The position numbers and the translations under genes were made by a program. This document shows, piece after piece, positions 5,452 to 55,617 of a DNA stretch of 64,000 nt (the stretch's first letter is position 1; each line of letters starts with the position of its first letter). The notes beneath the pieces are model-generated. The model was not told the DNA's origin. It worked only from the letters and a program-made list of their open reading frames with translations, and made no database searches. Source of the DNA: Thermoplasmata archaeon (lineage in GTDB: Archaea > Thermoplasmatota > Thermoplasmata > RBG-16-68-12 > JAGMCJ01). The stretch covers positions 761 through 64,760 of the forward strand of contig JAGLRN010000034.1 in the NCBI GenBank assembly GCA_023136265.1, given 5' to 3'.

Positions 5452-7641
5452 TTAGAAAGCGGATCTGGGCGGATGTCCGTTCGCCGGGAAGCACCTCGCG
5501 CGCACGCCCTTCCTCTCGATATCTATCTCTCCGCCCTCGACCAACTTCTTGACGTGATAGTTAGCTAGTTGCCTGCTTATCCCCATCAGCCTCGCGAGGT
5601 CGCTTATGGACATCCCTGGGGACTCGTTCACCCGCTCGAGTATGTCCTCCTGGATCGCGTGGAGGCCGTTGTCCGGTATCTTCATCCCAACTGGATAGAA
5701 GATCTTCCTGCTCCCCTTCGGCTTGGATACTATCAGGCCCTCCCGCTCGAGGACGTCCAGGTGATAGGTCAGCGTCCCGTTGTTCAGCTGCAGGTTCCGT
5801 TTTATCGCGGTGTAGTGCTCTCCAGGATGCACCTTGATGTAACCGTAGATCTGACCGCGCAGGAAGTGGTCCAGGATGTCCTTGCGCTTGAGCTTGACGT
5901 ACAGAGGAATCAGCAGGAACTTGAAGAGGCCGAACTTGCCCATCTCAGTGTTGAGGAACCCGCCCACGAAGGCGGCCGCGAGGAGTCCGAGCCCCAGCGG
6001 GATAATGATCGGGAACTCCTGAGCGGGAGCTTTCACGGCCACGTGGATTTCGTCGCTGGCCACGTTCCCGTCGTCGTCCTCCACGTGCAGGGTGACAGTG
6101 TAGTTGCCCGCCGCCTCGAACGCGTAGATCACCATCTGACCGGGAAGCTCAACGCTCGCATCGCCCAGCTCGATGACCCACAGGAAACTGGCGGTGTCCC
6201 AGAACCTCGGATCGTTGTCCGAGCAGTTGCCGGCGTCGAGAAGGACGGATTCGCCCACATTAGCCTCCCTGAAACCTCCCGCATCCGCGACGGGTGATGT
6301 TGTGTCGCGCACCGCTATCTTCACCGTGTCCATGTCCGAATTCCCGCCCGAGTCGCTGGCGGCAAGCGTTATCCAGTACGTGCCCGGAGTGTCGAAGACG
6401 TACTCCACGGTGAGCCCTTCGAGCCTGACGGAAGAGCCCTGGTCATCGAACTCCCAGATGAATACTCCCACGTCAAAGAAGTCAGGGCTGTTGTCCGTTG
6501 ACCCGCTCGCATTCAGCGTGAACGAAACGTCCTCGTCCACATCCTCGTTCTCACCCGCGCATGCCGTGGGCGGTGTGAGATCAGTGTCGAACACCAGCTC
6601 CACCCACGCGTTCGTCTCTATCGTCCTTAGAACCTCAGTCTCGTGCTCTCCCTTGCTCGCCGTGATGAAATACGGGTTGTGACTGTTGACCTCGAATTGG
6701 CTCAGCTCCGCCTCCGTTACGACGATATCCTTCACGATTCCGGACTCGTCCGTCCAGGCGGTCTTCTTGGCGCCGAGCCCGCTAGAGAGCAGGACCTCCG
6801 CCACGTGAACGGGCGTGGAGTGGACATCCGTCACCTCGACGGTGACGAACCACTGAATGAACACGCTCGAGAGCACATCCTCGTAGGATATCTTGCCCTC
6901 GTCAATCGTCGTGTTGATCAGTCTGGGATGGGAGTCCTCCATCACGACGAGGTCGATGAACGTGCCTGACACGGTCGAGTTTGCAATGATCGGGGAGGAG
7001 CCAGAAGCGAAGATCGAAATACCATTCCAAGTGACGGAGCTTGATTCGATGAAGGCTTCCGAGTTCTCCAGGTAGATGCCCCATTCGCCAGTCTCCTCTA
7101 CCATGGAGCCCTTCATTTCCACCGAGGAGTTCACGGAATAGATCCCAGCGAACTGGTTGTTGTTGAAATGAACGCTCTCCAGGGAGACAGAGGCCTGCTC
7201 CAGCAGCAAGAGACCGCGGTGTGCGTACTCGACCCTGGCGTTCTTGATGACGTTGTCGTGCCCCGTGAGGATGATGCTCCCCCAATCCCCCGCGTGCTTG
7301 ACAGTCGCGTTCGACGTGAATGTGATGCTCTCTCCCTCGGACGCGTCCGCGAAGAGGCGGCCCTCGACATACAGGCTCGAGTTCTCGTGAAGGAGCACGT
7401 CGACCCCCGGGTCAATGATGAGAACGTCCTCCATGCCCAGGACCGCATCATCAGTCACGATGAAGGGGCTCTCGTTGGCCTCCCAGTGCATGTCCTCGAT
7501 GAGCCCGTGTATGTATGTCGGACCTGCCGAAGCCTCGGGCGAAATAAGAGCTAGGCAGGAAAGAAGCATCACTAACATCAGAGCAATTGCGGAGCCCAGT
7601 CGAGCAATGCCTCTCGCCTCTTTCCTGCCCTTTCTGTTCAA
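5452..7641 (-). CDS. membrane-anchored surface protein: signal peptide, parallel beta-helix (NosD/PbH1-like) and 2 PKD-like domains outside, single TM, cytoplasmic tandem winged-HTH domains
   Basis: 729 aa. N-terminal signal sequence ...LISPEASA. PbH1-like repeats (NATV..., NSTVSG...). Two PKD-like segments (DTPGTYWITLAASDSGGN, FEAAGNYTVTLHVEDDDGN). Hydrophobic TM IIIPLGLGLLAAAFVGGFL. C-terminal ~160 aa carries two wHTH-like segments (ILDHFLRGQIYGYIKVHPGEHYTAIKRNL...LDVLEREGLI and MSISDLARLMGISRQLANYHVKKLVEGGEI). Confidence 0.7.
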   Translation of the reverse strand: MNRKGRKEARGIARLGSAIALMLVMLLSCLALISPEASAGPTYIHGLIEDMHWEANESPFIVTDDAVLGMEDVLIIDPGVDVLLHENSSLYVEGRLFADASEGESITFTSNATVKHAGDWGSIILTGHDNVIKNARVEYAHRGLLLLEQASVSLESVHFNNNQFAGIYSVNSSVEMKGSMVEETGEWGIYLENSEAFIESSSVTWNGISIFASGSSPIIANSTVSGTFIDLVVMEDSHPRLINTTIDEGKISYEDVLSSVFIQWFVTVEVTDVHSTPVHVAEVLLSSGLGAKKTAWTDESGIVKDIVVTEAELSQFEVNSHNPYFITASKGEHETEVLRTIETNAWVELVFDTDLTPPTACAGENEDVDEDVSFTLNASGSTDNSPDFFDVGVFIWEFDDQGSSVRLEGLTVEYVFDTPGTYWITLAASDSGGNSDMDTVKIAVRDTTSPVADAGGFREANVGESVLLDAGNCSDNDPRFWDTASFLWVIELGDASVELPGQMVIYAFEAAGNYTVTLHVEDDDGNVASDEIHVAVKAPAQEFPIIIPLGLGLLAAAFVGGFLNTEMGKFGLFKFLLIPLYVKLKRKDILDHFLRGQIYGYIKVHPGEHYTAIKRNLQLNNGTLTYHLDVLEREGLIVSKPKGSRKIFYPVGMKIPDNGLHAIQEDILERVNESPGMSISDLARLMGISRQLANYHVKKLVEGGEIDIERKGVRARCFPANGHPPRSAF

Positions 7642-7660
7642 TCGTCTCCGTCCTATGGTA

Positions 7661-10324
7661 TCAAAGCACGTAGCGTCTAATAAGGCTGATGGCCGCTATT
7701 ATGAGCGGTATCCCGACGGCCATGGGCAACATCACGTCCCTGATCGGCGGCCAGGGCGGCGCGATCATGCCTCCCTCGTTGTCGACGACCACGTCGACGC
7801 TGACCACGTCGGAATACAGCTCGCCATCATAGGCGCGTGCGTGCACCGTATGGTTTCCATTGCCGTACTCGGTCGTGTCCCAGAGATACGCCCACGTGGA
7901 CCAGCTTCCGTCGCCGGATGTGTCCGTGGCGTTCTGCCACTCACCGTCGTCTATCTTCACCTGGACGAGGTCAACCTCGTCCCCCGGGTCAGGATCGCTG
8001 GCGTACCCGTACACGAGGTACTCCCCGTCCACGGTCTCGTTCTCGACCGGATGGACGACTTCCAACTCGGGTGCGCTGTTGAGGTTGTCAACGCCCACCT
8101 CCACGCAGTCAAGCTCGGAGTGGTGCTCTCCGTCATAAGCGCGGGCGCAAACCGTGTGGTTGCCGTTCTCGTACTCGCCAGTGTTCCACTCGTAGGCCCA
8201 GTGCGACCAGCTTCCGTCGCCCGAGACGTCCACGGCATCCTCCCACTCGTCCTCGTCTATCCTGACCTGAACAAGCTCCACGCCCCCGTCGTCCTCAGCG
8301 ATCCCGTTGACCAGAACGATGCCGCTGAGTAGCGCACCATCATTCGGATAGAGGATCTCGACCTCCGGCGGGTCGTTCACATTGTCCGTGCACGCGATCA
8401 CGGTCGCATTGTCGGACCATAGCTCGCCGTCGTAGGACCTTGCGAGGATCGCGTAGCAGTCGTCATCCCACTCAGGGGTGATCCACTCGTACGCCCACTG
8501 GTACCAGCTGTCGTCCGGCGAGACGTCCTTTGCCATGTGCCACTCGCCGTCGCCGATCTTCACCTGGACCTTGGTTATGCGGTCTCCCTCATCGTTGTCC
8601 CACGCCTTCCCGTGGATGAGATAGAATCCGCTCACTTCCTCGTTGTACTCGGGATGAATGATCGAAACCTCGGGCTTGCTGTTATCGTTCTCTATGATGA
8701 CCTCTCGGACGTCCACTTCGGACCAGCCGCACTCGGAACCGGCCTTTGCCTTAACCCAATGCTCCCCGTTCTCGTAGTCACGGGTGTTCCAGTGGAATGC
8801 CCATGTCCTGTAGTCGGGGCCCCAAGACGTATCGGTCGCCTCGTGCCAATCGCCCTCATCGATCCTCACCAGGACGTGAGAGACGCCGTACCCGGGGTTC
8901 GGGTCATTGGCCGTTCCGTGGATGAGCACTATCCCGCTGAGAACGTCCCCGTTCTCGGGATGCACTATCTCGACGGTCGGGGCATCGCAACCTCCGTTCT
9001 CGACTATGACCTTCACCCAGTCGACATCGGACCAGTACTCACCGTCCCAGCCCTTGGCGTGGATGTAGTGGATGCCATCCTCCCACTGGGTGGTGTCCCA
9101 CTCCCATTTCCAGTACTCGAAGCCTTCCTCCATTCCCATCCAGGTAGCCTCGTGCCAGTCGCCGGTCTCGTCGATCTTCACGAGGACCTCGAGCAGCTCG
9201 TTGTCATCAAAACACTTGATCCAGACGTCCACCCAACCGCTGACGATTTCCTCCCAATCGGGCTCGACTATCTCGCACGTCGGCGGGTCGTTGACGTTGT
9301 CCACGTAGACGTGTATGTCCACGTACTCAGAGTAGTCCTCACCGTCGAAGGCTCTGGCGACGACCGCATGCCATCCGTCCTCGAACTCCGTCGTGTCCCA
9401 CTCGTACTCCCATGTGTGCCAATCACCGTCGGGCGAGACATCCGTGGCGTTGAACCACTCCTCTGTCCCGTCGAACGCAACCTGCACGAGCTCGACCTGG
9501 TCGCCCTCATCAGAGTCCCCAGAGTGGCCCCATACGGTCACAGTCCCGCTGACCTCGGACCAGTCAGGCGGGTGCTCGATGTTCACCCAAGGCGGCGTGT
9601 TCCCCGGCTCCTCGTTGATGACGTAGACGTGAATATCAACAATCTCCGAGTGCTCCTCGCCGTCAAAGGCCCTGACCACGAAGTAGTGCCAGCCGTTCTC
9701 GACCTCGGTCGTGTCCCAGATGTACTCCCAGTTCCACCAGTCGCCGTTCTCCGACGTGTCCGTGCAGTTGAGCCAATGCTCCGTGTTGTCGAAAGCGACC
9801 TCTACCAGCTCGACCTGGTCGCCCTCGTCCGGATCGGACGCGTGACCCCAGATTTCGACTATCCCCCAGACCTCGCTGTAGTCCGCCGGATGCTCCACCC
9901 AGACCTCGGGAGCTGTGTTGTCCTCGTTCAGCACTATGATGCCGAGGTCGTACAGCTCCGAGTGGAACTCCCCGTCGAAAGCTCTCGCGACCATGAAGTG
10001 CTCTCCGTTGAGAACGAGGGTGGTGTCCCACTCGTACGACCAGTGATGCCAGTCTCCCGTGACGTCGTTGGCGGTCTGCCAGTCATCTATGCTGTCTATG
10101 GAGATCTCCACTGTCACGACCTCGACGTCGTCCTCGGACAAACCCTCGATGGTCACGACCCCGTCCACAGTCTGACCGGGGTCGGGGTAGTTAATCACCA
10201 CCACTGGCGGCTCGTTCGCCAGACCAGTGGTGAGTGCACCCATCCCTATGACAAGCGCAAAAACCAGTACAATAGCGGTCCTGAGAAATTGCCCATTACT
10301 TCCTCCAAACCCTTTTGAGTCCAT
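7661..10324 (-). CDS. secreted/cell-surface protein with ~9 tandem Ig-like ~93-aa repeats, N-terminal signal peptide and C-terminal TM anchor
   Basis: 887 aa. Signal peptide ...ALTTGLA. Repeats follow the consensus P.V.I.HP.....VSG.V.I.G.A.D.D.GD.V.LVQV.ID.GEW..A.D.S.DGSW..W.Y.WDT.EYENG.H.V.ARA.DGE..S....V.V.VDN. C-terminal hydrophobic segment MLPMAVGIPLIIAAISLIRRYVL. Its stop lies 20 nt upstream of the next surface-protein gene, so the two likely form an operon. Confidence 0.7.
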   Translation of the reverse strand: MDSKGFGGSNGQFLRTAIVLVFALVIGMGALTTGLANEPPVVVINYPDPGQTVDGVVTIEGLSEDDVEVVTVEISIDSIDDWQTANDVTGDWHHWSYEWDTTLVLNGEHFMVARAFDGEFHSELYDLGIIVLNEDNTAPEVWVEHPADYSEVWGIVEIWGHASDPDEGDQVELVEVAFDNTEHWLNCTDTSENGDWWNWEYIWDTTEVENGWHYFVVRAFDGEEHSEIVDIHVYVINEEPGNTPPWVNIEHPPDWSEVSGTVTVWGHSGDSDEGDQVELVQVAFDGTEEWFNATDVSPDGDWHTWEYEWDTTEFEDGWHAVVARAFDGEDYSEYVDIHVYVDNVNDPPTCEIVEPDWEEIVSGWVDVWIKCFDDNELLEVLVKIDETGDWHEATWMGMEEGFEYWKWEWDTTQWEDGIHYIHAKGWDGEYWSDVDWVKVIVENGGCDAPTVEIVHPENGDVLSGIVLIHGTANDPNPGYGVSHVLVRIDEGDWHEATDTSWGPDYRTWAFHWNTRDYENGEHWVKAKAGSECGWSEVDVREVIIENDNSKPEVSIIHPEYNEEVSGFYLIHGKAWDNDEGDRITKVQVKIGDGEWHMAKDVSPDDSWYQWAYEWITPEWDDDCYAILARSYDGELWSDNATVIACTDNVNDPPEVEILYPNDGALLSGIVLVNGIAEDDGGVELVQVRIDEDEWEDAVDVSGDGSWSHWAYEWNTGEYENGNHTVCARAYDGEHHSELDCVEVGVDNLNSAPELEVVHPVENETVDGEYLVYGYASDPDPGDEVDLVQVKIDDGEWQNATDTSGDGSWSTWAYLWDTTEYGNGNHTVHARAYDGELYSDVVSVDVVVDNEGGMIAPPWPPIRDVMLPMAVGIPLIIAAISLIRRYVL
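7774..10213 (-). repeat. intragenic tandem repeats (~279 bp / ~93 aa period, ~9 copies) encoding Ig-like domains
   Basis: Recurrent D.D.GD.V.LVQV...W.Y.WDT.E.ENG.H motifs appear at regular ~93-aa spacing across the 7661..10324 CDS. Confidence 0.5.
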
Positions 10325-11693: not shown

Positions 11694-12638
11694 CTATCGC
11701 CCTCCCTCTATCATGCTCATGTAGAGGTCTTCGAGCTCCATTCCTGAGGACTTGAACGAAACAACTCCAACGCCTTCGCCCACCAGCTTCGCCAGCACCT
11801 CCGCCCTGTCCTCGTTGCTTCCGTCGAATCGCAGAAGAACGACCTTTGGCTGGACAGCCTCAGCCTCGGCAACGCCTTCGGACGCTCTCAACGTGTCAAG
11901 CTGGCTTTCCGTGAGGTCCTCGACAGTCTGCAGCTCAATCTTCTTCGGGCCCATGAGCTTGCCTATGTTCTCGACTTCGTCGAAGTAGATGAGCCTCCCC
12001 TTATCCACCATGGCGACCCAGTCGCAGACCTCCTGTGCCTCGTACAGAAGATGAGAACTCATGAAAATCGTTCGCTTCTCCTTCTTGAGATCCTTGATTA
12101 TTTCTCGGACCTCGATCATTCCACGCGGGTCGAGCCCGCTTGTTGGCTCGTCCAGTATCAGGACCGTAGGCTCGTGAAGCAAAGCCTGGGCAATTCCGAG
12201 CCTCTGCTTCATGCCCTTGGAGAACTTCCCTATCCTTGTCGTCGCCCACTCTTCCATATGGACCTGTTCCAGGACGCGTTTCGAACGATCTCTGATGTAC
12301 TCCTTATCCATCCCACGAAGTCTTCCGAGGTAGTCCAGCGTCTCGATCGGTGTGAGATAGGGATAGAACTCTGGGATCTCTACAACGGAACCGACGTTCA
12401 TGAGTGCCGCCTTCGGGTTCTCTCGGATGTCAATCCCCTCCACGTAAGCCTTCCCGGCGGTTGATCTTATCAGGTTCGTGAGTATCTTTATCGTGGTCGT
12501 CTTCCCCGCGCCGTTGGGACCTATGAAGCCCACGCACACATCTGGCCCTATCGTCAGAGTCAGCTCGTCCAAGGCGGGGAACCCGTTGTACTTCTTCGTC
12601 AGGCCGACGGTCTTGATGACCTCTCGCATCGCCCACAC
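11694..12638 (-). CDS. ABC transporter ATP-binding protein (ABC-2 exporter type)
   Basis: Walker A GPNGAGKTTTIK, signature FSKGMKQRLGIAQAL, Walker B LILDEPTSGLD and an H-loop are all present. Confidence 0.85.
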   Translation of the reverse strand: MWAMREVIKTVGLTKKYNGFPALDELTLTIGPDVCVGFIGPNGAGKTTTIKILTNLIRSTAGKAYVEGIDIRENPKAALMNVGSVVEIPEFYPYLTPIETLDYLGRLRGMDKEYIRDRSKRVLEQVHMEEWATTRIGKFSKGMKQRLGIAQALLHEPTVLILDEPTSGLDPRGMIEVREIIKDLKKEKRTIFMSSHLLYEAQEVCDWVAMVDKGRLIYFDEVENIGKLMGPKKIELQTVEDLTESQLDTLRASEGVAEAEAVQPKVVLLRFDGSNEDRAEVLAKLVGEGVGVVSFKSSGMELEDLYMSMIEGGR

Positions 12639-14450: not shown

Positions 14451-14554
14451 GTCGGGGTGGCTCAGCCTGGTGGAGCGCCAGACTCATAGGGTTCGTTCGA
14501 AGAGCGCTCCTTGGAAATCTGGAGGTCGCGGGTTCAAAGCCCGCCCCCGACACC
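14451..14554 (+). tRNA. tRNA-Met (anticodon CAT), elongator-type, with ~30-nt intron just 3' of the anticodon
   Basis: Acceptor GTCGGGG/CCCCGAC with discriminator A. D arm GCTC..GAGC. Anticodon stem CCAGA/TCTGG with loop CTCATAG. An insertion GGTTCGTTCGAAGAGCGCTCCTTGGAAA sits between the anticodon loop and the 3' stem strand. T arm GCGGG-TTCAAAG-CCCGC. The gene starts 1 nt after the S3Ae stop codon. No CCA is encoded. Confidence 0.8.
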
Positions 14555-49084: not shown

Positions 49085-49104
49085 TATTAGTATATTCGAA
49101 TATG
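49085..49104. promoter_or_regulatory. A/T-rich divergent promoter region with perfect palindrome TATTCGAATA
   Basis: Lies between divergent purP (start 49015, minus strand) and the DsrE-like gene (ATG 49123). Palindrome at 49093-49102. Confidence 0.25.
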
Positions 49105-49122
49105 CGTATAGAGAGTGATATC

Positions 49123-49539
49123 ATGGCGAACAAGATGACCCTGATAGTATTCTCCGGCACCGTCGACAAGCTCATGCCTGTCGGGATACTCGCAAGCGGT
49201 GCTGTGGCAATGGGGATGGAGGTGGAGATCTATCTGACCTTCTGGGGACTTCAGGCCTTCAGGCAGGGTGCTCCCCAGCAAGTGACGAAGATGAGCGCGG
49301 AATACGAGGACATGGCTCCCATGATGATGCAGCTCATGAAGGAGAAGAACATGCCTTCCTGGTACGACACCCTCAAGCAGGCAAAGGAGCTCGGGACCAT
49401 CAGGATACACGCATGCGCGGCCACCATGGACCTGATGGGAATGACGAAGGAGGACCTCGACCCGATGGTTGACGACATCGTCGGCGTGGCGGAGTACGTC
49501 GAGTTCGCGAGGGAGTCCGAGATAACGCTGTTCATGTAG
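49123..49539 (+). CDS. DsrE/DsrF-like sulfur-relay family protein
   Basis: 138 aa from MANKMTLIVFSGTVDKLMPVGILASGAVAMGMEVEIYLTFWGL... resembles DsrE/peroxiredoxin-like (COG2210-type) proteins. A conserved Cys lies in IHACAAT. Confidence 0.55.
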   Translation: MANKMTLIVFSGTVDKLMPVGILASGAVAMGMEVEIYLTFWGLQAFRQGAPQQVTKMSAEYEDMAPMMMQLMKEKNMPSWYDTLKQAKELGTIRIHACAATMDLMGMTKEDLDPMVDDIVGVAEYVEFARESEITLFM

Positions 49540-49553
49540 CTGGAGGGTTAGGT

Positions 49554-49787
49554 CTGTACGAAATCGACAGGACGGTTGACGCGAGGGACACTTTCTGCCC
49601 GGGACCCTTGATGGAACTGATACGAGCGGTGAAAGAGGGAGAGGTCGGAGAGGTCATCGCCGTGTGGTCCAAGGACGCCGGCTCGCAAAGAGACATTCCT
49701 CTGTGGATTGAGAAGGCAGGTCACGAGCTTCTTGCAGTCAACGAGAAGGAAGAGTACAACGAGTTCGTGATCAAGAAGCTCAGATAG
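49554..49787 (+). CDS. TusA-like sulfurtransferase (start codon unresolved: no in-frame ATG/GTG/TTG upstream of the conserved Cys motif)
   Basis: Translation LYEIDRTVDARDTFCPGPLMELIRAVKEGEVGEVIAVWSKDAGSQRDIPLWIEKAGHELLAVNEKEEYNEFVIKKLR carries the TusA CPxP motif and the DIP..W...GH pattern. Not in the ORF track because its first canonical start is internal. Confidence 0.45.
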   Translation: MYEIDRTVDARDTFCPGPLMELIRAVKEGEVGEVIAVWSKDAGSQRDIPLWIEKAGHELLAVNEKEEYNEFVIKKLR

Positions 49788-49812
49788 ACCCGCGGATACC
49801 GAGGCGGAAAAA

Positions 49813-50943
49813 ATGAAGAACGTTGTCGTTCTTGGTGGCGGAGTCGGAGGAAGCGTCGTCGCCAATCACCTTGCTAAGAAGGCTAAGCGCGGGGACTGCA
49901 AGATCACCGTTGTAGATGAAGACGGCAAGCACGTGTACCAGCCGGGGTTCCTCTACGTCACCCTCGGGAAGCAGAACCCCGCCAAGCTCGTGAGAGACGA
50001 GAGAACGCTTCTCAAGAGAAGCGTGGACCTGGTCACGTCGAGGGCCGAGAGGATCGACCCCGGGGAAAGAACGGTCCATCTTGCAGGCGGCAAGAAGCTC
50101 GACTATGATTACCTTGTGATCGCGACAGGCTCGACTCTGCATCCTGAGCAGGTCCCTGGCTTCGAAGGTGCCCACCACTTCTACAGCCTGGAGGGCTCGA
50201 TAGACCTCAGGAACGCCCTGATGAAGTTCAACGGCGGGGATGTCGTAATCGCCGTTGGAGGCGTTCCTTACAAGTGCCCTCCCGCCCCTGCGGAGTCCGC
50301 GTGCCTCTTGGACTACTACTTCACAAAGAGGAGGATGAGGGAGAAGGTCAACCTGAAGTTCCTGTCTCCTCTCGGGCGCGTCTTTCCCCTGGAGTCCTTG
50401 GATCCCTTGGTCACTGAGGTCTTCAAGCAGAAGAACGTCGAGGCCACGATCTTCTTCAATATCGAGTCGATAGATCCGAAGTCCAAGAAGGTGGAATCGC
50501 TCGAGGGCGAGACGGTCAACTACGACCTCCTGATAGCCATCCCACCTCACAGCGGGGCGGATGTGGTGATCGACTCTGGATTAGGAGACAGAGGCGGATG
50601 GATTCCAACCGACAGGCACTCGCTTCTCGCGAAGGGGCACGGCGACATCTACGCGGTCGGTGACGCAACCGACATACCCATCTCAAAGGCAGGCGCGACC
50701 GCTCACTACGAGGGCTTGGTCGTCGGCGACAACATCGCCGCCAGGCTGAACGGACAATCACCGCCAGACAACTACGATGGCAAGGTCACGTGCTTCTGTG
50801 ATGCAGGCTTCCACAGAGGGATAATGATGACCTTCGATTACGAGAACCCGCCAGTGCCTCCCCCGCTGAATCGAAGACACTACCTCGGAAAGATGATGAT
50901 AAATAGGCTCTACTGGATGCTCATCCCGAAGGCGAGGGTCTAG
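49813..50943 (+). CDS. FAD-dependent pyridine nucleotide-disulfide oxidoreductase, sulfide:quinone oxidoreductase-like
   Basis: N-terminal FAD fold VVVLGGGVGG. Cys in VPYKCPPAPAE (SQR-type KCxGAP-like). Second Cys pair near CFCDAGF. Confidence 0.6.
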   Translation: MKNVVVLGGGVGGSVVANHLAKKAKRGDCKITVVDEDGKHVYQPGFLYVTLGKQNPAKLVRDERTLLKRSVDLVTSRAERIDPGERTVHLAGGKKLDYDYLVIATGSTLHPEQVPGFEGAHHFYSLEGSIDLRNALMKFNGGDVVIAVGGVPYKCPPAPAESACLLDYYFTKRRMREKVNLKFLSPLGRVFPLESLDPLVTEVFKQKNVEATIFFNIESIDPKSKKVESLEGETVNYDLLIAIPPHSGADVVIDSGLGDRGGWIPTDRHSLLAKGHGDIYAVGDATDIPISKAGATAHYEGLVVGDNIAARLNGQSPPDNYDGKVTCFCDAGFHRGIMMTFDYENPPVPPPLNRRHYLGKMMINRLYWMLIPKARV

Positions 50944-51270
50944 ATGCCGCTCAACGATGAGAGGATTTACACACTACAGGCAAGTCTATGCAAGGCTCTC
51001 TCGAATCCGGTGAGGCTGATGATAATCGACATTCTCAAGGAAGGCGAGACGAGCGTCAGCGACCTCCAAGAGAAACTGGGAAGGCAGCAGTCCAACCTGT
51101 CGCAGCATCTGGCGGTTCTTCGAGGGAATGGGATCGTTAAGAATCGCAGAGAAGGCACGACGATGCTGTACTCTCTGACAAGCCCGAAGATAGTCGAAGC
51201 CTGCTCTCTGGTCAGACAGATTCTAAGGGAGCAGAGCGAAGAGTTCGGGAAGCTGATGAAGGGTCCGTAG
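50944..51270 (+). CDS. ArsR/SmtB-family transcriptional regulator
   Basis: LCKALSNPVRLMIIDILKEGETSVSDLQEKLGRQQSNLSQHLAVLRGNGIV is the ArsR-type HTH. The start ATG directly abuts the stop of the preceding gene. Confidence 0.7.
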   Translation: MPLNDERIYTLQASLCKALSNPVRLMIIDILKEGETSVSDLQEKLGRQQSNLSQHLAVLRGNGIVKNRREGTTMLYSLTSPKIVEACSLVRQILREQSEEFGKLMKGP

Positions 51271-51322: not shown

Positions 51323-51424
51323 TAGCCCCGGGCAGATTCGAACTGCCGTCAAGAGGTCCAGAACCTCTTATGATTTGCCGGCTGAGGCATCGAGCCTGGC
51401 CTTTGACCGCTACACTACGGGGCT
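51323..51424 (-). tRNA. tRNA-Gln (anticodon CTG) with ~33-nt non-canonical intron in the D-loop region
   Basis: Acceptor AGCCCCG/CGGGGCT (A1:U72) with discriminator A. Anticodon arm AGAGG-TTCTGGA-CCTCT. T arm GGCAG-TTCGAAT-CTGCC. Relative to the intronless copy at 53283..53353, ~33 nt (TCAAAGGCCAGGCTCGATGCCTCAGCCGGCAAAT) are inserted after D-loop AGCGG. TATA-like AAATATAC lies ~40 nt upstream. Confidence 0.6.
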
Positions 51425-51512
51425 GCAGTAGGCACTTCTCAAAAGGGCACTCCCCTGCACAAATATACTTCGCAGATGAGAGACCGAGGGAAGCATATGG
51501 CCGTGCGGTCGA

Positions 51513-53198
51513 TCACTTCGCCTGCTGTCGCTTCTGGATCTTGGCCCAAGTATCCCGCAATTGCACGGTCCGGTTGAGGACCAGCTTCTGTTTGGTAGAG
51601 TCAGGGTCGACGCAGAAATAGCCCAGGCGCTCGAACTGGAACAGGTCGAAAGGTTCGAGATTCCCCACGGCGGGCTCCACCTTGCACGAGCGGAGCACCT
51701 CTAACGAGTCGGGGTTCACGAAAGTCTTGAAGTCGGTGTCCTTCTGGCCCAGAGGGTCTGGCACGGTGAACGGTCGGTCGTACAGGCGGACCTCCGCGTC
51801 GATGGCGTGCACAGCTGACACCCAGTGTAGCGTGGACCTCACTTTCCGCCCGTCCGGGGCATCACCACCGCAGGTTTCCGGGTCCACGGTGCACCTCAGC
51901 TCCACGACCTCGCCGTTCTCCTTGACGGGCTCTTTGCACGTGACCAAGTAGGCGTTCCTGAACCGGACCTCCCTGCCCGGAGCCAGTCGGTAGAACTTCT
52001 TCGGCGGATTCTCCATGAAGTCGTCCCGTTCGATGTACGCGACCCGGGAGAACGGCACCTTCCTCGTGCCCGCTTCGGGCTCCTCCGGGTTCCTCATGAG
52101 CTCCATCTCCTCCACCTTGTCCTCGGGATAGTTCTCGAGCACGACCTTGAGCGGGCGAAGGACGCCCATGAACCGAGGAGCGGTCATGTTCAGGTCCTCT
52201 CGGATGCAATGCTCTAGGAACTCGAAATCCACGGTGCTGTGGACCTTGGCAACACCTATGCGCTTGCAGAAGCTCCTTATGGCGGCCGGGGGATAGCCAC
52301 GCCTCCTCATCCCGCTTATTGTGGGGAGCCGGGGGTCGTCCCATCCGTTCACGTATCCGTCCTCCACAAGCTCGAGCAGCTTCCGCTTGCTCATGACCGT
52401 GTGGGTGAGGTTCAGGCGGGCGAACTCGATCTGTTGCGGGTGATACGCGCCAAGCTCGTCTAGGTACCAGTCGTAGAGCGGGCGATGGTCTTCGAACTCA
52501 AGGGTGCAGATTGAGTGCGTGATGCCCTCGATGGAATCCTCAAGGCCGTGCGCCCAGTCGTACGTGGGGTAGATGCACCACTTGTCGCCAGTGTTGTGAT
52601 GGGTCGCGTGCAGTATCCTGTACATGACAGGGTCCCTCATGTTCATGTTCCGGTGGGACATGTCAATCCTGGCCCGGAGCACCTTCTCGCCATCCGCGAA
52701 CTCGCCTGCCTTCATGCGCTCCAGCAAGTCGAGGTTCTCCTCCGCGGATTTGTCTCTGTGGGGGCTCTCCTTGCCCGGGGTGGTGAGCGTGCCTCGATAC
52801 TCGCTGATCTTCTCCGCCGACAGGTCGTCCACGTACGCCTTCCCATCCTTCACAAGCTGCACCGCGTACTCGTACATCTGGTCGAAGTAGTCCGAGGCGA
52901 AGTACAGCCGGTCCCCCCAGTCGAACCCGAGCCACTTGACATCCTCGATGATGGCTTTCACGTACTTGTCCTCCTCCTTCATCGGGTTCGTGTCATCGAA
53001 CCGCAGATTGCACAATCCCCCGTACTCCTCGGCGATGCCGAAGTTGAGGCAGATGGACTTCGCGTGTCCGATGTGCAAGTAGCCGTTGGGTTCAGGCGGG
53101 AAGCGAGTATGCACTCTACCTTCATGCTTGCCGGTTCTGTTGTCCTCGTCGATCATCTGGCGGATGAAGTCGCGAGCGGGAGGCTCACCGGAACCCAT
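51513..53198 (-). CDS. glnS: glutaminyl-tRNA synthetase, bacterial/eukaryotic type
   Basis: HIGH region [46 protein letters not shown]-type VMSKRK, and C-terminal ...[12 protein letters not shown]. Collinear with, and highly similar to, E. coli GlnRS as I recall it. 561 aa. Confidence 0.85.
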
Positions 53199-53282
53199 GA
53201 TTCATCACCTTTGCTGTCCCCGTCGTGGGAACTCCTTAATCGGGAGTGGTGTAGTTATATGTATTGGGATTGGAGCGGGAGA

Positions 53283-53353
53283 TAGCCCCGACCGGATTTG
53301 AACCGGTGCCAAGAGGTCCAGAGCCTCTTATGCTGCCGCTACACCACGGGGCT
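53283..53353 (-). tRNA. tRNA-Gln (anticodon CTG), intronless
   Basis: Acceptor AGCCCCG/CGGGGCT, D stem GUGU/GCAU, anticodon arm AGAGG-CTCTGGA-CCTCT, T arm ACCGG-TTCAAAT-CCGGT, discriminator A. 71 nt, no encoded CCA. Confidence 0.75.
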
Positions 53354-53380
53354 AGTGCGCAGAAATAAGCCACGATTGGC

Positions 53381-53388
53381 TATAAATC
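53381..53388 (-). promoter_or_regulatory. TATA box for tRNA-Gln
   Basis: Minus-strand GATTTATAG lies 28-35 nt upstream of the tRNA 5' end, the classic archaeal spacing. Confidence 0.4.
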
Positions 53389-53426: not shown

Positions 53427-55079
53427 CTACAGCGAGGAGACCTCTTCGAGCCGCCCGAGGACGAAGTCCCTGTCCAAAACGGAGAGGAACGGAGCCGCTC
53501 TGGGCCCCCTCTCCTTCCCTAGGAAGACAAGGTACAGGGACACGAAGAACCTCCTCGTCTTCACGGGAAGCTCACCGCTCTTCGTCAAGCGCGTCATCGC
53601 ATTCTTCAGCTCCTCCTCGGTCCAGTGAATGTCGGAGAGTGATTCGCGGAACTTCCCGAGGGCCTCTCTGTCCGTGCGTTCGAGCTTGTCCTCTATCGAG
53701 CGGATGTCTTTCAAGACGTCGATTCTAAGATCCTCTGGGGCGTGTGTCTTTGTCCAATTCTTCGAGAGCATCAGCCTTTTGGCCACCTGCTTCCTCTCAT
53801 CGTCGCTCAGCTCGGTTGCGAGGACGCCGGTGTCCCGAAGTCTTTTGATGGCCCAATCGACCGGTTCCTCGGTAGGCCCTGTCTGGGCTAGGAGGGAGGC
53901 ATGTCTGTATGGGATTCGGAATGGCACGGACGAGGGAGCCTCTTCAAGTCGTGAAAGCCCGTAGGCTCTTGCCCCGTCGTCGTCTTCGTCCTCGAAGAAC
54001 ATCCTCTCCGCCTCATCGTATCGATCGTGATAGCTGTCCACCTTGGACAGGTCCAGGACGATCCTCTTTGACGTACTGTTGAACAGGAAGACGTATCTCA
54101 GGACCTCTGGCTCCCCAACCTCGAGCCATTCCTTCGGAGTGAACCCGAGGAATCCTGAGCTGCTCATGTCGCCCAAGTCCTTGCCCTGGCTCTGCATCCC
54201 CACCCACTCGTAGGGTATCCCATACGGAGGGAGCATATCCATGACCTCACGGGCGATCTCCTTGCAGCTGTCCCTCGAACCCCCCGGAGTGGCGTGGTCC
54301 TTCCCGAAGGCCTCGATGTCGACTTCCAGGAGCCTCCACAGGGCGGGCCACTCGAGCCGCCAGTTCAGCTTCCCTTCCTCCAGTCTGGACACACCGTCGT
54401 GGCCTTCCCTGCATCTGTAGTGAACGTCTCCATCCTCTGTCATTCTCGTGGTCTCGGCCGTCCCGATCGTGTTGCACTCCGTGCAGAACGCATCGAAGGG
54501 TATCCAGCCCTCGGGGTACTTCCTCTCCCCCCTGTACTTGTTTATCAGCGGCCTCACGTCTTCGCTCTTCCTAACCAGTTCGAGGACGATTTCGCGCATC
54601 TCCTCCTTGCCGTAGACATCTCCGGTCCTCTCCAGTTCCACACCGGGTGCGAACTCTTCCATGCTGCCGCCAAAATCCTCCCAGTAGTGCTCGACCCATG
54701 AGGAGTGACATCCGGAAGGGTCAGGGACATCCTTCAGCCGCCAGCTGACGTAGTCCCTTCCCTCGTCTCCAGGGAACTGAGAGAGCTGCCCCTCCGTTCC
54801 TTTCCACGGGTCCTGCGTGTAGAGCACGAGGTACTGCGTGACGTCCTTGCCCGCCGCCCTCAGCTCTCTCGATACCGAGTTCGTGAGGACCACTTCGCCC
54901 CTGAGCCTGCCGACGTGCTGGAGCCCACTCACGGAGAGACCCGCTGAGCTATGAACGACATCCTTTCCTCGAAGGAACTCTTCGATCTGGGGGAGAAGAA
55001 CATCAAGCCAGTGCATGATTTCACGCAATCGTGCGAGCCCTGACCAGCGCCCTGAGAGGGACTCCGAGGATCTCGTCAT
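53427..55079 (-). CDS. lysK: lysyl-tRNA synthetase, class I (archaeal type)
   Basis: MHWLDVLL..., SGLQHVGRLRGEV (HIGH-like), DPSGCHSSWVEHY, KDHATPGGS, and C-terminal FLGKERGPRAAPFLSVLDRDFV all match LysK. Confidence 0.85.
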   Translation of the reverse strand: MTRSSESLSGRWSGLARLREIMHWLDVLLPQIEEFLRGKDVVHSSAGLSVSGLQHVGRLRGEVVLTNSVSRELRAAGKDVTQYLVLYTQDPWKGTEGQLSQFPGDEGRDYVSWRLKDVPDPSGCHSSWVEHYWEDFGGSMEEFAPGVELERTGDVYGKEEMREIVLELVRKSEDVRPLINKYRGERKYPEGWIPFDAFCTECNTIGTAETTRMTEDGDVHYRCREGHDGVSRLEEGKLNWRLEWPALWRLLEVDIEAFGKDHATPGGSRDSCKEIAREVMDMLPPYGIPYEWVGMQSQGKDLGDMSSSGFLGFTPKEWLEVGEPEVLRYVFLFNSTSKRIVLDLSKVDSYHDRYDEAERMFFEDEDDDGARAYGLSRLEEAPSSVPFRIPYRHASLLAQTGPTEEPVDWAIKRLRDTGVLATELSDDERKQVAKRLMLSKNWTKTHAPEDLRIDVLKDIRSIEDKLERTDREALGKFRESLSDIHWTEEELKNAMTRLTKSGELPVKTRRFFVSLYLVFLGKERGPRAAPFLSVLDRDFVLGRLEEVSSL

Positions 55080-55617
55080 TGGCTGTCTTGTTCACGAAGA
55101 CCACGGACAGGACCGGCGTTCCGCCAGCATCCTGTATGTCGTCTATGGTGCACCTTATGGTGTCGCCAGAGCTCAAGACATCGTCAACTATCACGACCTT
55201 CTTCCCGCTCGGGTCTGCGTAGTTCGAACTGAAGGCCCCGCCGCCTCGTTCCCTCTCCTGACTGGGCCTGTAGACTATGAGCTCCCGCTCAAGGTCCTCC
55301 GATATAATCGTGGCGTAGGGAATGCCGTTGATCGCAATGCCCGCAACGGAATCGAAGTCCCCATCGCTTTTCTCCATCTCCTCGAGGATGATATCAGCCA
55401 TGGCCGCGGACACGAAACCGAGCCTGCCGGCGTAAACACCAACGGATCTCCATCCGATCTTAACGTCCTTGGGGGGCTCTCCTCCCTTCATCCCTCTCGT
55501 CAGAAGCCACGTCACGGTGTTGACAGAAAGGTGGAGCTCGTCCCCAATCTCCTTCTCATTGAAGCCCTTTTTCTTGTACTCAAGGGCTTTCTTCACTAGG
55601 TCATCCAGGCTCTTCAT
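55021..55617 (-). CDS. PRTase-domain protein with N-terminal HTH (PyrE-like / GfcR-like putative regulator)
   Basis: N-terminal HTH (GFNEKEIGDELHLSVNTVTWLL) plus the PRPP motif KVVIVDDVLSSGDT. 198 aa. Overlaps the lysK start by ~59 nt. Confidence 0.6.
   Translation of the reverse strand: MKSLDDLVKKALEYKKKGFNEKEIGDELHLSVNTVTWLLTRGMKGGEPPKDVKIGWRSVGVYAGRLGFVSAAMADIILEEMEKSDGDFDSVAGIAINGIPYATIISEDLERELIVYRPSQERERGGGAFSSNYADPSGKKVVIVDDVLSSGDTIRCTIDDIQDAGGTPVLSVVFVNKTANDEILGVPLRALVRARTIA

Follow-up and report, generated by a model that had tools for sequence, protein, structure and literature searches.

A bacterial-type glutaminyl-tRNA synthetase gene between two archaeal tRNA-Gln genes in a Thermoplasmata archaeon

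The window, a stretch of 64,000 nt analysed here as a whole, carries a gene for an apparent bacterial-type glutaminyl-tRNA synthetase (GlnRS) set between two tRNA-Gln(CUG) genes. Reviews up to 2022 and a survey of 2,588 genomes state that no archaeon encodes GlnRS, and explain this by an archaeal tRNA-Gln (A1:U72, A73) that bacterial and eukaryotic GlnRS are unable to use (PMC9499178, PMC8762117, PMC5388404, PMC3439900). The locus raises the question of whether the gene is a GlnRS in truly archaeal DNA and, if so, how it came to be there and which tRNAs it would serve. A sequence-only reading had proposed a horizontally acquired, self-contained module for direct glutaminylation.

The synthetase gene and its surroundings

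The 561-aa product is a full-length bacterial-type GlnRS and not an archaeal GluRS. It scores 729.7 bits with the glnS model TIGR00440, well beyond the curated equivalog threshold of 425.8, and falls under the cut-offs of both the archaeal GluRS model TIGR00463 (359.2 bits, cut-off 401.75) and the bacterial GluRS model TIGR00464 (75 bits, cut-off 290). As the sequence-only reading had claimed, it is collinear over its full length with the class Ib GlnRS of E. coli (PDB 1GSG/1QTQ; 711 bits) and P. aeruginosa (PDB 5BNZ; 721 bits) at approximately 58% identity; the alignment with M. thermautotrophicus GluRS reaches 181 bits. All four segments quoted in support of that claim lie in the ORF and are identical or near-identical in E. 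coli GlnRS; VMSKRK and the other quoted segments are identical, and NRTVgLRDTWAK is one residue off. Rather than a GluRS-like anticodon-binding domain alone, which was to count against the assignment, Pfam identifies tRNA-synt_1c and both beta-barrel anticodon domains. The likeness to the E. coli and P. aeruginosa enzymes extends from the domains to the HIGH (residues 42-45) and VMSK (268-271) motifs and the glutamine-binding residues: the equivalents of E. coli R30, Y211, C229 and Q255 are R32, Y213, C231 and Q256 and are invariant in 34 of 34 archaeal sequences. The G36-recognition loop (392-407) is present, and equivalents of the anticodon-contact residues R341, R402 and Q517 and of the Leu136 unpairing loop are kept, the latter aligning with E. 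coli YRGTLTQPGK and being shortened in human GlnRS. Both loops are features of bacterial GlnRS that eukaryotic GlnRS and archaeal GluRS lack or do not conserve (PMC2978374). The product has neither the eukaryotic N-terminal domain nor a YqeY tail. Its best-scoring NCBIfam model is that of the GlnRS-YqeY protein known from Deinococcus radiodurans (PRK14703, 856 bits; PDB 2HZ7), with a match confined to model positions 12-563 of 769; the 561-aa archaeal proteins thus lack the tRNA-binding YqeY tail, and the name that NCBI gives them, 'GlnRS/YqeY domain fusion protein', is misleading.

The surroundings of the gene are otherwise archaeal, as the sequence-only reading held, with S3Ae, PAC2, FEN1, DTD2, PurP, class I LysRS and intron-bearing tRNAs all within the window. 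The class I LysRS gene adjoins glnS on the same strand, directly upstream, as had been noticed (Table 1). It probably starts at Met22 (55016), a position that removes the overlap with the gene upstream of it.

Table 1. Positions of the features at the glnS locus, numbered along the window
Feature	Position	Strand	Basis or remark
lysS, class I (archaeal-type) lysyl-tRNA synthetase	53427..55079	-	TIGR00467, 308 bits (cut-off 147.55); PF01921
TTTATA, TATA-box-like hexamer (putative archaeal promoter)	53381..53386	-	~30 nt upstream of the first base of the upstream tRNA-Gln
Upstream tRNA-Gln(CUG), intron-less, 71 nt	53283..53353	-	Rfam RF00005, 62.2 bits; ARAGORN
ACATATAA, putative TATA-like element	53255..53262	-	57-64 nt upstream of the glnS ATG; read from sequence
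AGGTGAT, putative Shine-Dalgarno-like element	53204-53210	-	6-12 nt upstream of the glnS ATG
glnS, bacterial-type glutaminyl-tRNA synthetase, 561 aa	51513..53198	-	TIGR00440; Pfam; full-length GlnRS alignments
GTATATTT, putative TATA-like element	51461..51468	-	~40 nt upstream of the interrupted tRNA-Gln
Downstream interrupted tRNA-Gln(CUG), 102 nt	51323..51424	-	starts 88 nt downstream of the glnS stop
Downstream tRNA-Gln, exon 1	51403-51424	-	
Downstream tRNA-Gln, intron	51374-51402	-	
Downstream tRNA-Gln, exon 2	51323-51373	-	

The flanking tRNA-Gln genes

In the window ARAGORN calls two tRNA-Gln(CTG) genes and no more, both on the glnS strand. They bracket glnS with identical acceptor stems (AGCCCCG/CGGGGCU, discriminator A73), in agreement with what had been read from the sequence. 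The upstream tRNA, 84 nt from the glnS ATG, carries A1:U72, G2:C71, C3:G70, G10 and A73. The downstream gene, with A1:U72 and A73, is missed entirely by Rfam at the gathering threshold, and its ARAGORN boundaries (51323-51397) were rejected, since the true 5' acceptor strand, AGCCCCG, begins at 51424, 27 nt upstream of the ARAGORN start. The D-loop is interrupted by a 29-nt insert, the boundary of which is ambiguous by one nucleotide either way within an A-run; with the insert removed a canonical 73-nt tRNA-Gln(CUG) cloverleaf is obtained, and the junction matches the intron-less homologues (GGTCAATCAT) of loci L081 and L126. L173, L001 and L172 carry the same interrupted gene; they vary mostly in the intron hairpin loop, and a double substitution turns an A:U pair of the anticodon stem into G:C. 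When four homologues are folded to a consensus, three nucleotides (21-23) bulge out, three base pairs form a helix (18-20:46-48) that leaves G17 and A49 unpaired, and the 3' side has an A-rich stretch (49-52), along with the intron hairpin. A standard archaeal bulge-helix-bulge (BHB) at the exon-intron junctions has a 4-bp helix between two 3-nt bulges, one on each strand; by comparison the motif seen here is BHB-like but relaxed, and the interrupted tRNA would presumably be spliced. The promoters at glnS and at the tRNA-Gln genes are likewise putative.

Both tRNAs show 68-97% identity to other archaeal tRNA-Gln, against only 51-60% to the bacterial ones, and they share the A1:U72 first pair and A73 discriminator that are the archaeal norm (Marck & Grosjean, cited in PMC9499178). 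Given that they are archaeal in sequence, acceptor stem and intron, the tRNAs were not transferred together with glnS and are resident archaeal genes. The E. coli GlnRS identity set comprises G73, U1-A72, G2-C71, G3-C70, G10, C/U34, U35, G36 and U38 (PMC1865053), of which the window tRNAs have only G2-C71, G10, C34, U35 and G36. Five of about ten elements are present, with A73, A1:U72, C3:G70, G37 and A38 differing. By this comparison they are not bacterial-type substrates, yet they are the sole plausible substrates of the window GlnRS. Codon usage adds that CAA, which a CUG anticodon is unable to read, makes up 18% of the glutamine codons in the window. No tRNA-Gln(UUG) lies within the window, while in relatives it adjoins glnS; the module is incomplete here. 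Two tRNA-Gln sequence variants coexist beside glnS in the window and in L001, L172, L126 and L083. A division of these tRNAs into a 'type I' and a 'type II' was rejected, as the identity matrix shows only a D-arm variant (GGTCAATCAT) and no two clean lineages.

Origin and spread of the gene

In neighbour-joining trees rooted on human GlnRS, the archaeal sequences form one clade in 98 of 100 bootstraps, and by this distance method the clade is nested within bacterial GlnRS, 13 nodes deep, in 99 of 100. The protein thus falls where the sequence-only reading expected it and not with archaeal GluRS. Archaeal GlnRS is 61-72% identical to the enzymes of Planctomycetota, Chloroflexota and Sumerlaeota, as opposed to 58% for that of E. 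coli. Well over 150 distinct clusters at 90% identity make up archaeal GlnRS; most of the homologues carry no source name, and those that do (approximately a quarter) are all assigned to Thermoplasmata/Thermoplasmatota save one labelled Petrotogales (P0099). Synonymous divergence (dS) is saturated between subclades, and dN/dS of 0.07-0.13 indicates purifying selection on glnS. Linkage between glnS and tRNA-Gln is seen in 16 of 17 archaeal loci, which came from exact-protein look-ups, compared with 3 of ~150 bacterial loci, the metagenome contig scan having yielded almost only bacterial loci among the matches listed. The order lysS, tRNA-Gln(CUG), glnS is retained even in the basal locus L085. 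The transfer from bacteria is old and clade-wide, not local, and the same arrangement recurs throughout a clade of sediment Thermoplasmata. The GC and GC3 of glnS are inside the range of the neighbouring genes; the gene is compositionally ameliorated, so that the comparison of composition suggested earlier speaks against a recent module. Of the module originally proposed, horizontal transfer from bacteria is upheld and self-containment is not: the tRNAs are archaeal, the transfer is old and the UUG isoacceptor is not local.

It could still be argued that the locus is a recent mobile 'glutaminylation cassette' in which a bacterial glnS arrived with its own tRNAs, given that tRNA-Gln genes tightly bracket glnS and that tRNA genes are common integration sites. 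This is very unlikely, since the tRNAs are archaeal down to an archaeal-style intron, the lysS, tRNA, glnS order extends across a deep clade, dS between subclades is saturated, the composition is ameliorated and no integrase or repeats were noticed near glnS in the window. An assembly or binning artefact, in which a bacterial gene was chimerically joined to archaeal DNA, might be suspected because all of the archaeal glnS sequences are metagenome-derived and one close homologue bears the Petrotogales label. Furthermore, three glnS-bearing NCBI 'chromosomes' (CP070739, CP070767, CP070798) are contigs concatenated with 100-N linkers and were rejected as closed genomes. An artefact is nevertheless scarcely conceivable: the identical protein occurs beside the same archaeal genes on 10 independent contigs from different samples and assemblers, archaeal tRNAs lie less than 90 nt from glnS on either side in uninterrupted sequence, and the linkage is found across archaeal loci. 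The contig is archaeal. The fold and Pfam domains are common to GlnRS and to archaeal and eukaryotic GluRS, which leaves room for a misannotated GluRS-family paralogue, either an archaeal GluRS or a GluRS2-like enzyme putting glutamate on tRNA-Gln. That is extremely improbable for a protein that is below the archaeal GluRS cut-off and far over that for glnS, that aligns with E. coli GlnRS at 711 bits against 181 for M. thermautotrophicus GluRS, and that has the GlnRS-specific unpairing loop, the G36 loop and the glutamine-selecting R30, Y211 and Q255 (PMC2978374).

Direct glutaminylation and the indirect pathway

The explanation we favour, with a probability of approximately 0.8, is that an ancestor of a large Thermoplasmatota clade acquired a bacterial glnS in a single ancient transfer, and that the gene encodes an active, discriminating GlnRS that charges the native archaeal tRNA-Gln. 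The gene would have been fixed beside the resident tRNA-Gln gene or genes, downstream of class I lysS, and its product would put glutamine directly on the host's own tRNA-Gln. The anticodon (C/U34-U35-G36) would be read by the conserved beta-barrel residues, with G10 and G2:C71 also recognised, and the weak 1:72 pair would be opened by the Leu136 loop. One of the two CUG isoacceptors of the window would first have to be spliced by the archaeal tRNA endonuclease, and the UUG isoacceptor for CAA codons would be located elsewhere in the genome. Formation of Gln-tRNA-Gln by the window enzyme is indirectly supported by the purifying selection and the tRNA-Gln linkage. Its activity on these tRNAs is presumed, as is efficient charging, given that about half of the E. 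coli identity elements differ. The enzyme thus resembles bacterial GlnRS and differs in its archaeal host, in its physical linkage to tRNA genes, rare in bacteria, and in its presumed substrates (A1:U72, C3:G70 and A73 or G73, in place of U1:A72, G3:C70 and G73 in E. coli).

How the supposed incompatibility was overcome may be reflected in base 73 of the tRNA and residue 235 of the enzyme (E. coli numbering; D237 in the window protein). G73 replaces A73 in L003, L083, L084, L085, L126 and L166-168. G73 is accompanied by N235 in seven loci and A73 by D235 in seven, an association that amounts to essentially one branch of the tree; the window subclade combines A73 tRNAs with an Asp235 enzyme and most lineages combine G73 with Asn235. 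The exceptions are L085 (D235 with G73) and L081 (N235, with only an A73 tRNA on a 3.8-kb contig). In E. coli GlnRS, D235 serves in minor-groove reading of pairs 2:71 and 3:70, and D235N/G mutants are reported to have relaxed specificity (Perona, Rould, Steitz and Söll, 1989). In most lineages the incompatibility would have been overcome on the tRNA side, through a glnS-linked tRNA-Gln pair with G73 on an archaeal body, and in the window subclade A73 tRNAs go with Asp in place of Asn at this acceptor-stem-reading position. A scan of the alignment found no archaeal-clade-specific substitutions at positions conserved in bacterial GlnRS, and so gives no positive evidence that the enzyme adapted. 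G73 is an identity element for E. coli GlnRS (PMC1865053) and archaeal tRNA-Gln normally has A73 (PMC9499178); with both base 73 and residue 235 differing among lineages, the old incompatibility hypothesis becomes directly testable.

The non-discriminating GluRS (ND-GluRS) and GatDE of archaea (PDB 3AII, 2D6F) also end in Gln-tRNA-Gln, on tRNAs that keep A1:U72 (PMC2330236), whereas the window enzyme, which falls short of the archaeal GluRS model, is predicted to charge in one step. It is quite possible, at a little short of even odds, that GlnRS is redundant or accessory and that ND-GluRS and GatDE have been kept alongside it, perhaps with the G73 or compact D-loop tRNA copies serving GlnRS and the A73 variants with the GGTCAATCAT D-arm serving GatDE. 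The GatDE determinant A1:U72 is kept in almost all linked tRNAs, the coexisting variants beside glnS would suit such a division and GlnRS-bearing bacteria often retain an amidotransferase (PMC4206432). However, the retained A1:U72 is not diagnostic, because bacterial GlnRS too prefers a weak 1:72 pair (PMC2978374), and the variant classes do not form clean phylogenetic groups. In L003 both isoacceptors have G1:U72 and in L083 the A73 variant is degenerate, hinting at a relaxed GatDE constraint in some lineages. A tblastn search with M. thermautotrophicus GatE, verified against PDB 2D6F, turned up nothing resembling GatE, either in the window or across the 170+ loci compared. An accessory role is compatible with the old transfer favoured here and differs from it only on whether the indirect pathway has been replaced. 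More tentative is the proposal that this major, globally sampled clade gave up GatDE, otherwise universal in archaea, for direct glutaminylation and got past the proposed 'orthogonality barrier' by adjusting residue 235 together with its tRNA-Gln (A73 to G73 and, in a single lineage, A1 to G1), the direction of the 73 and 235 changes being one that we infer. Some genomes might then be in transition, with two tRNA-Gln variants, one of them degenerating or intron-bearing, for the two pathways now or once. If true, this would be a natural experiment in which tRNA identity was rewired after the inter-domain transfer of a synthetase.

The locus and its 150+ relatives suggest that at least one crossing of the barrier to GlnRS in archaea has taken place and that selection has long maintained the gene since, which bears on GatDE as an 'archaeal signature' and on annotation, the implied YqeY fusion being absent. 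They could also be a source of naturally orthogonal GlnRS/tRNA pairs for engineering the genetic code. The transfer of AsnRS into archaea is likewise the lateral gain of an amide-amino-acid synthetase, one that made the indirect pathway dispensable (PMC9499178). In that case G73 and GUU, the bacterial identity elements, were already present in the archaeal tRNA, whereas tRNA-Gln was thought incompatible and its discriminator base varies among the glnS lineages. Another archaeal GlnRS, in Heimdallarchaeia, is reported in passing beside cox operons (bioRxiv 10.1101/2024.07.04.601786); it belongs to another phylum and another gene context, and no tRNA linkage is described there. A Pyrodictiaceae 'GlnRS' in a 2026 paper was rejected as a mislabel, its EC number being that of an amidotransferase and its KO that of CysRS.

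The glnS gene and its archaeal host

The product of the window glnS scores 729.7 bits against the NCBI curated glnS equivalog, above its cut-off of 425.8, and falls short of that for archaeal GluRS (359 bits, cut-off 401.75). Its alignment with GlnRS of solved structure runs end to end, at 721 bits for P. aeruginosa and 711 bits for E. coli, as against 415-480 bits for eukaryotic GlnRS and 181 bits for M. thermautotrophicus GluRS, so that the bacterial-type identity proposed in a sequence-only reading holds; the four peptide segments quoted there are all present. The catalytic and both beta-barrel anticodon-binding domains are found, and HIGH, VMSK, R30, D66, Y211, H215, S227, C229, F233, Q255, R260, R341, R402, R410, Q517 and R520 (E. 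coli numbering) are kept. Both GlnRS-specific insertions described as tRNA-discrimination modules (PMC2978374), the Leu136 'unpairing loop' and the G36-recognition loop, occur in the window enzyme; the former, YRGTLTQPGK in E. coli, has a counterpart here, whereas the human loop is shortened. Within the GlnRS alignment, no archaeal-specific replacements at bacterially conserved residues were found. Given that the PRK14703 match ends at model position 563 of 769, the enzyme lacks a YqeY tail. Strong purifying selection is indicated by a dN/dS of 0.07-0.13 against four relatives with unsaturated dS, and as an enzyme it is an ordinary bacterial GlnRS. The NCBI pipeline name 'glutamine--tRNA ligase/YqeY domain fusion protein' is carried by 560-aa archaeal proteins without a YqeY domain (matches P0008-P0061, P0126, P0141 and others).

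The contig host is archaeal and the glnS junction is real. The window encodes ribosomal protein S3Ae, PAC2, FEN1, the archaeal D-aminoacyl-tRNA deacylase and PurP, together with a GvpD/KaiC-like ATPase and HVO-type HTH regulators, and class I LysRS is, as had been noted, the next gene upstream on the glnS strand. Ten contigs, assembled independently from different samples and by different pipelines, encode exactly this GlnRS protein among unchanged neighbours. With a GC of 0.60 and a GC3 of 0.84 (window mean 0.76, sd 0.05) glnS is not compositionally foreign, although its codon usage is somewhat more biased than in adjacent genes of comparable length. The intron-bearing CAU tRNA directly after the S3Ae gene is missed by default ARAGORN and mislabelled tRNA-Ser(cga) in intron mode.

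Features of the window and homologous introns
Feature	Position	Strand	Basis or remark
tRNA, anticodon CAU (Met or Ile2 type)	14451-14552	+	Rfam 54 bits; 30-nt intron at canonical 37/38
tRNA-Gln(CUG), interrupted, 3' of glnS	51323-51424 (102 nt)	minus	sequence reading
D-loop tRNA intron, window	51374-51402	minus	29 nt; one of four homologues
D-loop tRNA intron, L173	4797-4825		homologue
D-loop tRNA intron, L001	7799-7827		homologue
D-loop tRNA intron, L172	4795-4823		homologue
glnS, GlnRS	51513-53198	minus	561-codon ORF
tRNA-Gln(CUG), 5' of glnS	53283-53353	minus	Rfam 62 bits; ARAGORN 53281-53354
lysS, longest ORF	53427-55079	minus	59-nt overlap with upstream GfcR/PRTase-like gene 55021-55617 (minus)

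Origin of the enzyme and linkage to tRNA-Gln

The homologues found fall into well over 150 distinct clusters at the 90% level, with identities of 72-98%; about a quarter carry a source name and, with one exception, these are Thermoplasmata, Thermoplasmatota or Methanomassiliicoccales MAGs. The exception (P0099, 78% identical) carries a Petrotogales label, probably through mis-binning. Among bacteria the closest enzymes, from Pirellulales, Phycisphaerae, Anaerolineae, Sumerlaeota and other groups, share 61-72% identity, and that of E. coli 58%. In a neighbour-joining tree of 187 GlnRS sequences, rooted on human GlnRS (sequence checked against PDB 4YE6), all 34 archaeal sequences group together, 13 nodes deep among bacterial ones, in a single clade that is monophyletic in 98 and nested in bacteria in 99 of 100 bootstraps; the immediate sisters are an Anaerolineaceae MAG and a metagenome contig, a placement that is not robust. 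Given this single nested clade and the saturation of synonymous sites between archaeal subclades, archaea acquired glnS once, in an ancient transfer from bacteria, and have inherited it vertically since. The horizontal acquisition proposed earlier therefore stands as a transfer from bacteria and not as a recent local event.

Seventeen archaeal loci were compared, the window and 16 fetched ones (L001-003, L081-085, L126, L164-168, L172, L173), and in 16 of the 17 a tRNA-Gln lies within ~1 kb of glnS. Among the bacterial matches listed, only 3 of ~150 glnS loci have a tRNA-Gln in the vicinity. The order is CUG-glnS-UUG in L003, L082, L083, L126, L164 and L165 and CUG-UUG-glnS in L166-168, and the set is usually directly 3' of lysS, the basal L085 included. 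The archaeal tRNA-Gln are 68-97% identical among themselves and 51-60% identical to bacterial tRNA-Gln. They were therefore not imported together with the enzyme, contrary to their inclusion in an acquired module. Nor is the module self-contained: CAA accounts for 53 of the 291 Gln codons counted across 35 window genes, the window holds no tRNA-Gln(UUG), and the organism must therefore encode one elsewhere.

Reviews and surveys in the searchable literature describe archaea as lacking GlnRS and offer tRNA incompatibility as the reason (PMC9499178, PMC8762117, PMC5388404, PMC3439900); the only contrary mention there is a passing remark that Heimdallarchaeia have GlnRS genes adjacent to cox operons (bioRxiv 10.1101/2024.07.04.601786). 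Public pipelines label the Thermoplasmata proteins glutamine--tRNA ligase, so the gene is 'known' to databases, apparently without discussion. New here are the occurrence in Archaea, the conserved physical association of glnS with native tRNA-Gln genes and the pattern of G73/A73 with N/D235.

Between the interrupted tRNA-Gln and purP, the window carries a DsrE-like gene, an SQR/FCSD-like flavoprotein and an ArsR regulator (49102-51270). This sulfur-gene insertion, with TusA, is common to L001, L172 and L173, purP directly follows the tRNA in L082, L164 and L165, and the insertion and the downstream tRNA swap delimit one and the same sub-lineage.

An interrupted tRNA-Gln and the discriminator base

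ARAGORN reports two tRNA-Gln(CTG) genes, both on the glnS strand. There is no Rfam match at the downstream gene, although the upstream one is found, and the ARAGORN call for it (51323-51397) was rejected, as 27 nt further upstream, at 51424, there is a perfect 5' acceptor strand (AGCCCCG). Removal of the D-loop insert yields a canonical 73-nt tRNA-Gln(CUG) cloverleaf whose exon junction (GGTCAA joined to TCAT) agrees with intron-less homologues in L081 and L126. The two window genes do share the acceptor stem (A1:U72) and CUG anticodon, as first read, and also A73.

In the window, L173, L001 and L172 (GlnRS 85-93% identical) this intron-bearing second CUG gene replaces the downstream UUG gene. 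Exons and intron flanks are constant across the four lineages and the hairpin loop is variable; one stem pair changes from C:G to U:G and one anticodon-stem pair from A:U to G:C, a pattern that points to a gene being maintained. At the junctions the fold is a relaxed bulge-helix-bulge-like motif, its central helix 3 rather than 4 bp long, and splicing is predicted. Introns at such non-canonical (D-loop) sites are known chiefly from Crenarchaeota and DPANN; their presence in a Thermoplasmatota lineage raises the question of the splicing-endonuclease type there.

GlnRS D235 reportedly reads the acceptor-stem minor groove, with D235N and D235G said to relax specificity (Rould, Perona, Steitz and Söll, 1989). 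The enzymes of the A73 subclade (window, L173, L001, L172, L082, L164, L165) are told apart from those of the G73 lineages by just two columns of the alignment. E. coli position 235 is one of them: Asp accompanies A73 in seven loci and Asn G73 in seven. The exceptions are L085 (Asp with G73) and L081 (Asn; its 3.8-kb contig carries no tRNA-Gln other than an A73 one). The tRNA-Gln discriminator is normally A73 in archaea and G73 in bacteria (PMC9499178), and E. coli GlnRS has G73 as one of its identity elements (PMC1865053). The glnS-linked tRNAs of L003 (additionally G1:U72), L083, L084, L085, L126 and L166-168 combine G73 with a tRNA body that is otherwise archaeal, and the G73 lineages take in the two branches nearest the base of the archaeal GlnRS clade. 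Since the association has these exceptions and maps to roughly one tree branch, it is offered as a lead to tRNA-enzyme co-adaptation, not as a statistic.

L083 also holds, between glnS and an intact G73 tRNA-Gln(UUG), a degenerate UUG-like copy (11740-11812, plus strand; Rfam 30.5 bits) with acceptor-stem mismatches, A73 and the D-arm GGCCAATCAT, whose intact counterpart is at L126 4742-4815; it may be a decaying older tRNA-Gln.

Proposed glutaminylation and neighbouring genes

TATA-like elements at plausible distances would serve glnS and each of the two tRNA-Gln genes, and a Shine-Dalgarno-like site appears to precede the glnS start. Once the interrupted tRNA had been spliced, GlnRS would bind tRNA-Gln through the anticodon and G10, the Leu136 loop would open the weak A1:U72 pair and glutamine would be attached directly. 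Only about half of the E. coli identity elements are present in the window tRNAs, so the enzyme would have to tolerate A73 and C3:G70; its long retention under selection makes this plausible. In the indirect route, A1-U72 and the D-loop are what GatDE recognises (PMC2330236). Almost all glnS-linked archaeal tRNA-Gln retain A1:U72, and given that a weak first pair suits GlnRS too, this retention is uninformative on GatDE. The G1:U72 of L003 and the degenerate A73 copy of L083 hint at relaxed constraint, and a verified GatE probe had no match in the loci searched, the window and every fetched locus.

As lysS homology begins at residue 22 and relatives are 531-535 aa long, its true start is probably Met22 (55016). 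In L167 (671-2299), L168 (334-1899) and L085 (7-1152) the class I LysRS encoded 5' of glnS shares only 29-31% identity with that of the window, with GlnRS at 73-81% and the neighbouring PRTase-like gene at 55-57%, which could reflect either very fast evolution or replacement by a divergent class I paralogue. The 1.9-3.2 Mb 'chromosome' records CP070739.1 (L081), CP070767.1 (L082) and CP070798.1 (L083) are MAG contigs concatenated by exact 100-N spacers (for instance L081 9155-9254, 13097-13196) and are therefore unfit as closed genomes or for long-range synteny. At 5452-10324 (minus strand) the window encodes two large secreted or surface-type proteins with PKD, beta-helix and Big_7 repeats, in one of which the extracellular repeats are oddly fused to C-terminal HVO_0163/MarR-type HTH domains.
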